Positions 38,031-38,785 of a DNA stretch of 64,000 nucleotides are shown in pieces. Location of the stretch: the sequence record NC_019399.1. One strand, written 5' to 3'. Below the pieces are notes generated by a model that made no database searches, was not told the origin of the DNA, and saw nothing but the letters and a program-made list of their open reading frames with translations. The stretch's first letter is position 1; the number at the start of each line of letters is the position of its first letter. The translations under genes were made by a program, and so were the position numbers. The stretch comes from Escherichia phage vB_EcoM_ACG-C40.

Positions 38031-38579
38031 ACCCAAGAAAACATCTACTGATCGTTGATACCACTGCAAATCCAAATAGCCATTACGCACATTAAACTGA
38101 TAGAACATATGACAAGGCGGTAATGCCATCTGCTTGAGTTCAGCTGGATTCCATGCTGAAACAATTTGACGCCTATCATTTGGCAGTTTTTTAATACGAT
38201 CAATAACTTCTATAATTTGGTCTACACCACCAAAATCACGCCACTGTTTTCCATAAATTGGACCAAGTTCACCGCTATGGTATCCTAAATCTTTTGCTTG
38301 ATTTTCGTAATTTTCATCCCAAACTGTTTTGCCTTGGATTAACGAATCATGTTGAATTAATCGCAAATCATTGACATTTGTGCTTCCCGATAAAAACCAA
38401 AGCAGCTCAGCAATGCAAGCTTTCCAGGCGAGCTTCTTAGTTGTTACTGCAGGAAAACCTTTAGTTAAATCCCAGCGTAATTTAGTACCGAACAAAGCAA
38501 TTGTTCCTGTGCCTGTTCGGTCATCGGTTTCGTAGCCATTTTCCAGGATATCTTTAATTAAAAATTGGTATTGTTTCAT
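38031..38579 (-). CDS. td: thymidylate synthase, exon 1 (residues 1-183)
   Basis: starts [26 protein letters not shown]; ends ...QRSVDVFLG at the 5' splice site. Confidence 0.9.
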
Positions 38580-38785
38580 TAGTTCATCCAAGAATATGTA
38601 GAAGGATATTTGGCAAAGTTAGGCTTATATCCTAATTTAACCATTTGTTTTGCTTTGTGAGTAAATCCTAAAGAACGCTCACCTTTAAGATATTGTTTTG
38701 GTGTCATAGGCCCTTGATGCATCTGCCGACAAATAAAAAGGGCCATAGCATTAGGAACATCCTTAACTTTTAATTTATTGCTCAT
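38579..38785 (-). CDS. hypothetical 68-aa protein inserted between frd and td
   Basis: ORF track; start overlaps frd stop (ATGA), stop overlaps td start (TAATG). Confidence 0.55.

Follow-up and report, generated by a model that had tools for sequence, protein, structure and literature searches.

The window analysed here, a 64,000-nucleotide stretch of the genome of Escherichia phage vB_EcoM_ACG-C40 (NC_019399.1), contains a T4-like (Tequatrovirus) segment in which the minus strand carries, in this order, gene 32 (40806-41711), the small frd.x open reading frames, frd, a 68-codon open reading frame (ORF68), td exon 1, the group I intron with I-TevI, and td exon 2. The dihydrofolate reductase gene, frd (38782..39363, minus strand), encodes a protein of 193 residues that is 97.4% identical to T4 Frd, and its TGA stop codon (38782-38784) overlaps the ATG start codon of ORF68 (38579..38785, minus strand; a 207-nt frame encoding 68 amino acids). 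The reading frame of td exon 1 (38028..38579, minus strand) opens with the ATG at 38579-38577 and closes at the first stop in frame, where the group I intron begins; I-TevI is found within this intron (37162-37899, minus strand), and exon 2 lies at around 36703-37017 on the same strand; this division of td is based on the T4 annotation, which joins the gene from two pieces with I-TevI inside. The frd-ORF68-td region of the window is 99.7% identical to that of Escherichia phage Paracelsus, and its td exon 1 matches T4 at 465/482 and 60/70 nt. At the Rfam gathering threshold no family is returned for positions 36500-40000 of the window, not even the I-TevI-carrying group I intron, which was likely missed because the ORF-containing loop breaks the match to the model. 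The mechanical ORF call for frd runs to an in-frame ATG further upstream, at 39390 (202 aa; the additional segment is 39363-39390, minus strand), and the record of phage IME537 annotates a similarly extended frd; the real start, judged by homology with the 193-residue Frd proteins of T4 and T6, is at 39363.

ORF68 fills the gap between frd and td exactly, as found both in the ORF listing and by reading the two junctions. The end of frd reads ...GTA TAT AAA TGA GCA AT..., with the ORF68 ATG overlapping the frd stop in an ATGA (38782..38785, minus strand), while the end of ORF68 reads ...TGG ATG AAC TAA TGA AAC AAT ACC..., where the last A of the stop codon is the first base of the td ATG in a TAATG (38577..38581, minus strand). 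In the T4 genome (NC_000866) frd (145109-145690) and td (ending at 145112) overlap directly by 4 nt with nothing between them, and in a three-way alignment ORF68 is a clean 206-nt indel. The original prediction, which placed a 68-codon frame precisely at the frd/td junction, gave T4 a direct ATGA overlap and described an overlap-type coupling arrangement on both sides of the frame, is therefore confirmed on each of these points, including the check that T4 has no identical ORF. Compared with T4, the window retains the same operon, the same frd 3' end and td 5' end, and coupling of the overlap type; the difference is that T4 has one overlap and the window two, first ATGA and then TAATG, with the 68-codon gene between them. 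In the ORF listing, the strand opposite the ORF68 interval contains no ORF of at least 30 aa, and no paralogue of ORF68 was found elsewhere in the window.

ORF68 overlaps its neighbours on both sides, and a consensus scan of the minus strand between 38500 and 38800, whose coverage leaves T4 middle and late promoters outside, detected no promoter-like or terminator-like site that would separate the three genes. The codons for the conserved ...SWM (Ser-Trp-Met) end of ORF68 also contain a GGA, 8-10 nt ahead of the td ATG. From the overlaps we infer that ORF68 is probably stop/start-coupled on both sides within the frd-td operon. ORF68 would be co-transcribed on the frd-td message, ribosomes ending on frd would reinitiate at the ORF68 ATG by putative termination-reinitiation coupling, and those ending on ORF68 would in turn reinitiate at td, possibly aided by the GGA; translation of td would thus be relayed through ORF68, as against directly from frd in T4. 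At the level of RNA, the folding z-scores (-0.3 and -0.55) are no better than those of shuffled sequence and Rfam gives no match over ORF68, which together rule out a structured RNA element or td riboregulator. A search of the literature found no proteomic or ribosome-profiling data on ORF68, no specific description of ORFs at the frd-td junction and no functional assignment for them.

The encoded protein belongs to an existing family, phrog_9550 of PHROGs v4, which it matches over its full length (residues 1-68 on profile positions 1-68 of 68; E = 3.7e-45, 153 bits) and which is also matched by all 28 of its aligned relatives. By tblastn, ORF68 is found in 236 phage records, about 133 of them at a protein identity of at least 90%, and the identical protein occurs in three (D5505, LF73P1 and PM105). 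Compared with its homologues in Klebsiella phage Marfa and Enterobacter phage CIP9, ORF68 has dN/dS values of 0.16 and 0.23, respectively, at near-saturated dS (0.9-1.3), and these comparisons show a protein evidently under purifying selection. Close homologues all share residues 1-6 (MSNKLK) and several internal residues, with little variation at V7; in the wider family no substitution is seen at R20, M48, G52 or P55, and P11, K34, F41, L51 and Y53 are almost completely conserved. The chance that an open frame would exactly fill the 206-nt gap is, by our own estimate from the base composition of the window, below 1%. This exact fit, the purifying selection and the phrog_9550 match all place the frame beyond chance, and on such comparative grounds ORF68 is seen to be a genuine protein-coding gene.

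The coupling signals on both sides and the lack of a recognisable domain would also be expected if ORF68 were a mere translational relay or a chance ORF with a functionless peptide. This explanation is strongly disfavoured, to the point of being scarcely credible, by the low dN/dS at near-saturated dS, by the invariance of MSNKLK, the near-invariance of V7 and the invariant internal residues, by homologues that occur outside any td context, and by a confident, compact AlphaFold2 model (pLDDT 84.9).

The family is narrow. A word-indexed search returned 40 proteins for ORF68, and when 1.84 billion cluster representatives were searched exhaustively with the family profile, only 11 matched, 10 of them small proteins of 70-96 aa and one spurious; no domain fusion that might hint at function was found in the latter search. 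Six short profile matches (E = 6.5e-9) to P0026, a repetitive protein of 1402 aa, were rejected as a tandem-repeat/low-complexity false positive with no real similarity. As sampled by these searches, phrog_9550 is a small and phage-only family.

The ORF is not a novelty, since most of the related GenBank records listed already annotate it as a hypothetical protein. In fact, phrog_9550 is a 'hypothetical protein' between frd and td in many phages of Tequatrovirus and Dhakavirus and in T4-like phages of Klebsiella, Enterobacter and Serratia, and ORF68 does not differ from it, being a member of that family and practically the same protein. ORF68 is an ordinary, already catalogued variable accessory gene, annotated as a hypothetical protein in more than 100 related phages. 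The annotation of its orthologues varies: they are labelled 'DUF4858' in phage Shinka (MZ502379) and 'flagellar biosynthesis protein' in phage PYPS2T (MH809535), neither of which is reproduced with current Pfam; the gene is left unannotated in JS98 (EF469154), no CDS is listed at the match in Paracelsus (MZ501096), and in IME339 and Klebsiella phage EI it is annotated in a truncated form of 42 aa from an internal Met. An assignment to DUF4858 was rejected, as neither ORF68 nor its relatives match any Pfam family at E <= 10.

Besides the window, ORF68 lies immediately upstream of td in Dhakavirus JS98 (97% protein identity), Marfavirus Marfa (81%), Kanagawavirus CIP9 (63-66%) and Serratia phage 4S (about 60%), making five strabovirus lineages in all. 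The overlap of the ORF68 stop with the td start is TAATG in JS98, Marfa and 4S and GTGA in CIP9; at its other end, the ORF68 start overlaps the preceding stop in JS98, CIP9 and 4S and follows the preceding gene after a 4-nt gap in Marfa. Between frd and ORF68, Marfa, CIP9 and 4S have one or two additional ORFs (111-126 aa). The more distant homologues (~30-45% identity) are found in Phapecoctavirus (phAPEC8; ~42% identity) and on metagenomic phage contigs, where they form part of long small-gene arrays; some have Pif1, DnaB or RNA-ligase genes in the vicinity, and none lies near td. Because ORF68 takes the same place in Dhakavirus, Marfavirus, Kanagawavirus and Serratia phage 4S, the td-adjacent slot is old; by this distribution, the position of ORF68 upstream of td is old within the Straboviridae, yet the protein is not tied to td in general.

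The constant linkage of ORF68 to td in the straboviruses could reflect a td-related role, with the protein serving thymidylate synthesis as a small subunit, chaperone or regulator of Td/Frd or of the phage dNTP-synthesising complex, and the invariant td adjacency and the start/stop coupling arrangement across the five lineages are as this would predict. However, T4, T2 and T6 make functional Td without ORF68, the Phapecoctavirus (~42% identity) and metagenomic homologues sit among small early genes with no td nearby, and the protein has no similarity to any known partner protein, all of which make such a role distinctly improbable.

The comparison of frd-td junctions across T-even genomes, which had been proposed as a check, supports the original prediction in that T4 lacks ORF68, but reveals three alleles, of which the T4 type is the rarest. 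Within Tequatrovirus, the slot is occupied by ORF68 in ~130 records, by a 115-aa ORF of the T2/T6 type in ~349-363 records, and is empty, as in T4, in 32 records. The last count is based on a 48-nt probe across the T4 junction for which a full-length match was required; 349 further records matched only 31 nt of this probe, as expected of the T6 type. About half of the 32 full-length matches are T4 itself or its laboratory variants, the others including RB55, RB59, HY03 and SG1. Among the records compared, the T4-type junction is accordingly a rare allele and not the norm of its genus.

Most Tequatrovirus genomes without ORF68 carry the T6-type insert, a segment of ~416 nt that encodes a 115-aa protein (T6 gp163) and is also present in T2, RB14, AR1 and others; it occupies positions 2083-2494 of the T6 locus sequence that was compared, the counterpart in the window being 38577-38785. 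It resembles ORF68 in filling the same slot with an uncharacterised small protein that is nearly invariant within Tequatrovirus. In contrast to ORF68, it encodes an unrelated protein, lacks overlap coupling, has non-coding spacers and 9-nt direct repeats, and leaves td with an AAGG Shine-Dalgarno sequence of its own. The T6 115-aa protein is 44% identical to CIP9 gp061 (E = 1e-30) and distantly related to CIP9 gp060, Marfa gp176 and 4S 00121; in CIP9, Marfa and 4S, members of the T6-type family thus co-occur with ORF68 rather than standing in its stead. The CIP9 row in fact consists of frd, the homologue of the T6-type ORF, its paralogue, ORF68 and td, a longer array of which the Tequatrovirus alleles appear to be subsets. 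In phage KarlGJung, the 115-aa ORF between frd and td (2102-2449 in its locus sequence) is labelled 'putative homing endonuclease'; neither Pfam nor NCBIfam gives a match for this protein, leaving the label unsupported. A second polymorphic slot is seen immediately upstream of frd, where the window has an 81-aa ORF (39363-39608, minus strand) between frd.1 and frd with its stop overlapping the frd start, T4 has only a ~71-nt gap, and T6 has a counterpart of the 81-aa ORF (gp161) plus a further ORF of 119 aa (gp160).

The origin of the T4 junction is suggested by the repeats that bound the T6-type allele. A 9-nt direct repeat, TAAATGAAA (which contains TAATGAAA), flanks the T6 insert, with its left copy over the frd stop and its right copy over the td start, and a deletion between the two copies of TAAATGAAA gives exactly the GTATATAAATGAAACAATACC of T4. 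Furthermore, the 5' end of T4 td is closer to the T6 type (66/70 nt identical) than to the ORF68 type of the window (60/70). Both observations point to the T4 overlap as a derived deletion allele; we infer that the direct frd/td ATGA overlap of T4 is probably a derived state and not the ancestral target of an ORF68 insertion.

Despite the age of the slot, the ORF68 allele carried by the window appears to be young. Compared with JS98, the window is 78% identical at the nucleotide level in frd and 78% in td exon 1 (flanks about 76-78%), with ORF68 at 98.1%. A sliding comparison delimits a tract of ~262 nt at ~98% identity to JS98 (38524..38785, minus strand), which runs from the ORF68 ATG to ~55-60 nt into td, its right-hand end being fuzzy by ~20 nt, with flanks at 51-95%. 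Across six carriers (the window, Ec_MI-02, vB_SsoM_113, fPS-2, IME537 and JS98), ORF68 is 98.1-99.5% identical in nucleotide sequence, as against 77-99.5% for frd and 76-96% for td. The JS98-like tract has its left end inside the AAATGA at the start of ORF68 in all Tequatrovirus carriers examined: each of them shows a difference from JS98 4 nt before the ORF68 ATG, and from the ATG on is nearly identical to JS98. The 5-nt repeat AATGA is found at both ends of the ORF68 insert and is compatible with microhomology at the original joint, while being too short to serve as proof. Also observed is a central patch of frd (alignment columns about 200-400) that in Ec_MI-02, vB_SsoM_113 and IME537 is 90-98% identical to JS98 and 52-85% to the window, the ends of frd in the same phages being Tequatrovirus-like, and this patch is further evidence of gene flow between Tequatrovirus and Dhakavirus around the locus.

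These patterns of identity show that the ORF68 allele common to Tequatrovirus and Dhakavirus has, to all appearances, a recent common origin and was moved into diverged frd/td backgrounds by recombination. The simplest reading would be that a Dhakavirus-like phage and a Tequatrovirus-like phage recombined once, not long ago, with transfer in either direction. Homologous recombination would then have carried the ORF68 insert into diverged backgrounds, eroding the foreign flanks to the edge of heterology.

A rival history takes the direct overlap of T4 as the ancestral state, with the precise insertion of a 206-nt cassette in the lineage of the window recreating coupling on both sides. It would likewise account for a young allele with 98-99.5% identity between carriers that differ by up to 24% in their flanks, and the end of the JS98-like tract within AAATGA and the AATGA at both ends fit an entry via td homology and junction microhomology. 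However, four other strabovirus lineages also have ORF68 in this place, the three more distant of them at an amino acid identity of 60-81%; of about 510 records, only 32 have the empty junction; the 5' end of T4 td is nearer the T6 type, and the T4 junction is the exact product of deletion at the 9-nt repeat; and a sharp tract end at heterology is also expected from repeated recombination with ORF-less alleles. Precise insertion into a T4-like ancestor is consequently rather unlikely. The evidence for a young allele lends partial support to the term 'inserted' for the Tequatrovirus/Dhakavirus pool only, and not for the locus as such: the part of the original prediction that stands is a young, laterally acquired allele in this pool (98-99.5% identity, with flanks differing by 3-24%), and the part that does not is the T4 junction as the reference state, given its 32 records.

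The allele-like spread into diverged backgrounds might further suggest that ORF68 is a remnant or cargo of an element of the homing-endonuclease type, spread by gene conversion, for example through co-conversion with the td intron and I-TevI, which in the window lies ~700 nt away; the label given to the alternative 115-aa allele in KarlGJung points the same way. In the 68 aa of ORF68, Pfam and NCBIfam detect neither a nuclease motif nor one of the NUMOD type, the gene lies beside an intron-less td in JS98, Marfa, Ec_MI-02 and vB_SsoM_113, the td intron occurs with all three junction alleles, and the KarlGJung label is reproduced by neither Pfam nor NCBIfam, so that this origin is very improbable. 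A free-standing homing endonuclease (seg/mob) or remnant of one was rejected as well, with no match to GIY-YIG, HNH, LAGLIDADG or NUMOD (Pfam E <= 10, NCBIfam <= 1), and linkage to the td intron is ruled out by the presence of ORF68 both with and without it.

In its size, its likely dispensability, its presence or absence among close relatives and its lateral exchange, ORF68 resembles the PeSL cassettes and the ORFans of hyperplastic regions. The shuffling of genes by PeSLs in T4-type phages makes use of flanking sigma-70-like early promoters and stem-loop terminators (Arbiol et al. 2010; PMC2839356). ORF68 differs from such cassettes in having no elements of this kind at its flanks or inside it, and in being embedded by codon overlap in a conserved operon of nucleotide metabolism. 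A PeSL-flanked mobile cassette was therefore rejected, the consensus scan giving no promoter-like or terminator-like site at the ORF68 boundaries, with a folding energy no better than that of shuffled sequence.

The ORF68 protein is strongly basic, with a pI of 10.1 (range 9.8-10.3), 12 K+R against 2 D+E, and a net charge of ~+10. An AlphaFold2 model built from the 28-sequence alignment (pLDDT 84.9) has helices at residues 13-24, 29-39 and 43-49, which form a compact three-helix core, and an aromatic C-terminal tail folded back against the N-terminal part. In agreement with the original prediction, which assigned no function, searches of Pfam, NCBIfam and PDB sequences, with both the single sequence and the 28-sequence profile, gave no match to ORF68. 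No recurrent Pfam family was seen among the 28 relatives, a Foldseek search of the PDB with the model returned a best E of at least 6.7, and a search of BFVD returned only the protein's own family. A helix-turn-helix DNA-binding protein was considered and rejected, as the tri-helical fold was not found to be superposable on known HTH domains.

On the basis of its charge, its size, its dispensability (T4, T2 and T6 are without the gene) and the early/replication-gene neighbourhood of its distant homologues, together with the compact three-helix core and aromatic C-terminal tail, we tentatively suggest that ORF68 may be a dispensable early accessory protein of the host-takeover/counter-defence type. 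It would bind nucleic acid or a host protein in early infection, and would not be an enzyme of thymidylate synthesis. The main alternative to this guess is the td- or frd-linked role considered above, which we hold to be improbable. A more specific proposal, that ORF68 is a small protein of new fold that is selectively advantageous to its carriers, for instance because it neutralises a host defence or a nucleic-acid-binding factor of the host, is unlikely on present evidence; if true, such an advantage would explain the recent recombinational spread of one near-invariant allele over Tequatrovirus and Dhakavirus, in competition with the 115-aa allele for the slot.

Overall, ORF68 is probably a real accessory gene, small and dispensable, that belongs to the narrow, phage-only phrog_9550 family and sits in an old and variable slot just before td in T4-like phages, with the accompanying readings of recent spread, stop/start coupling, deletion at the T4 junction and function. 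The significance of ORF68 beyond T4-like phage genomics is small, with phrog_9550 offering a tractable, dispensable protein of 68 aa that has no known fold relative. For the T4-like phages themselves, the textbook frd/td ATGA overlap of T4 is a rare allele that probably arose by deletion, and the frd-td junction constitutes a compact three-allele polymorphism that may serve as a marker of recombination and lateral exchange between Tequatrovirus and Dhakavirus.
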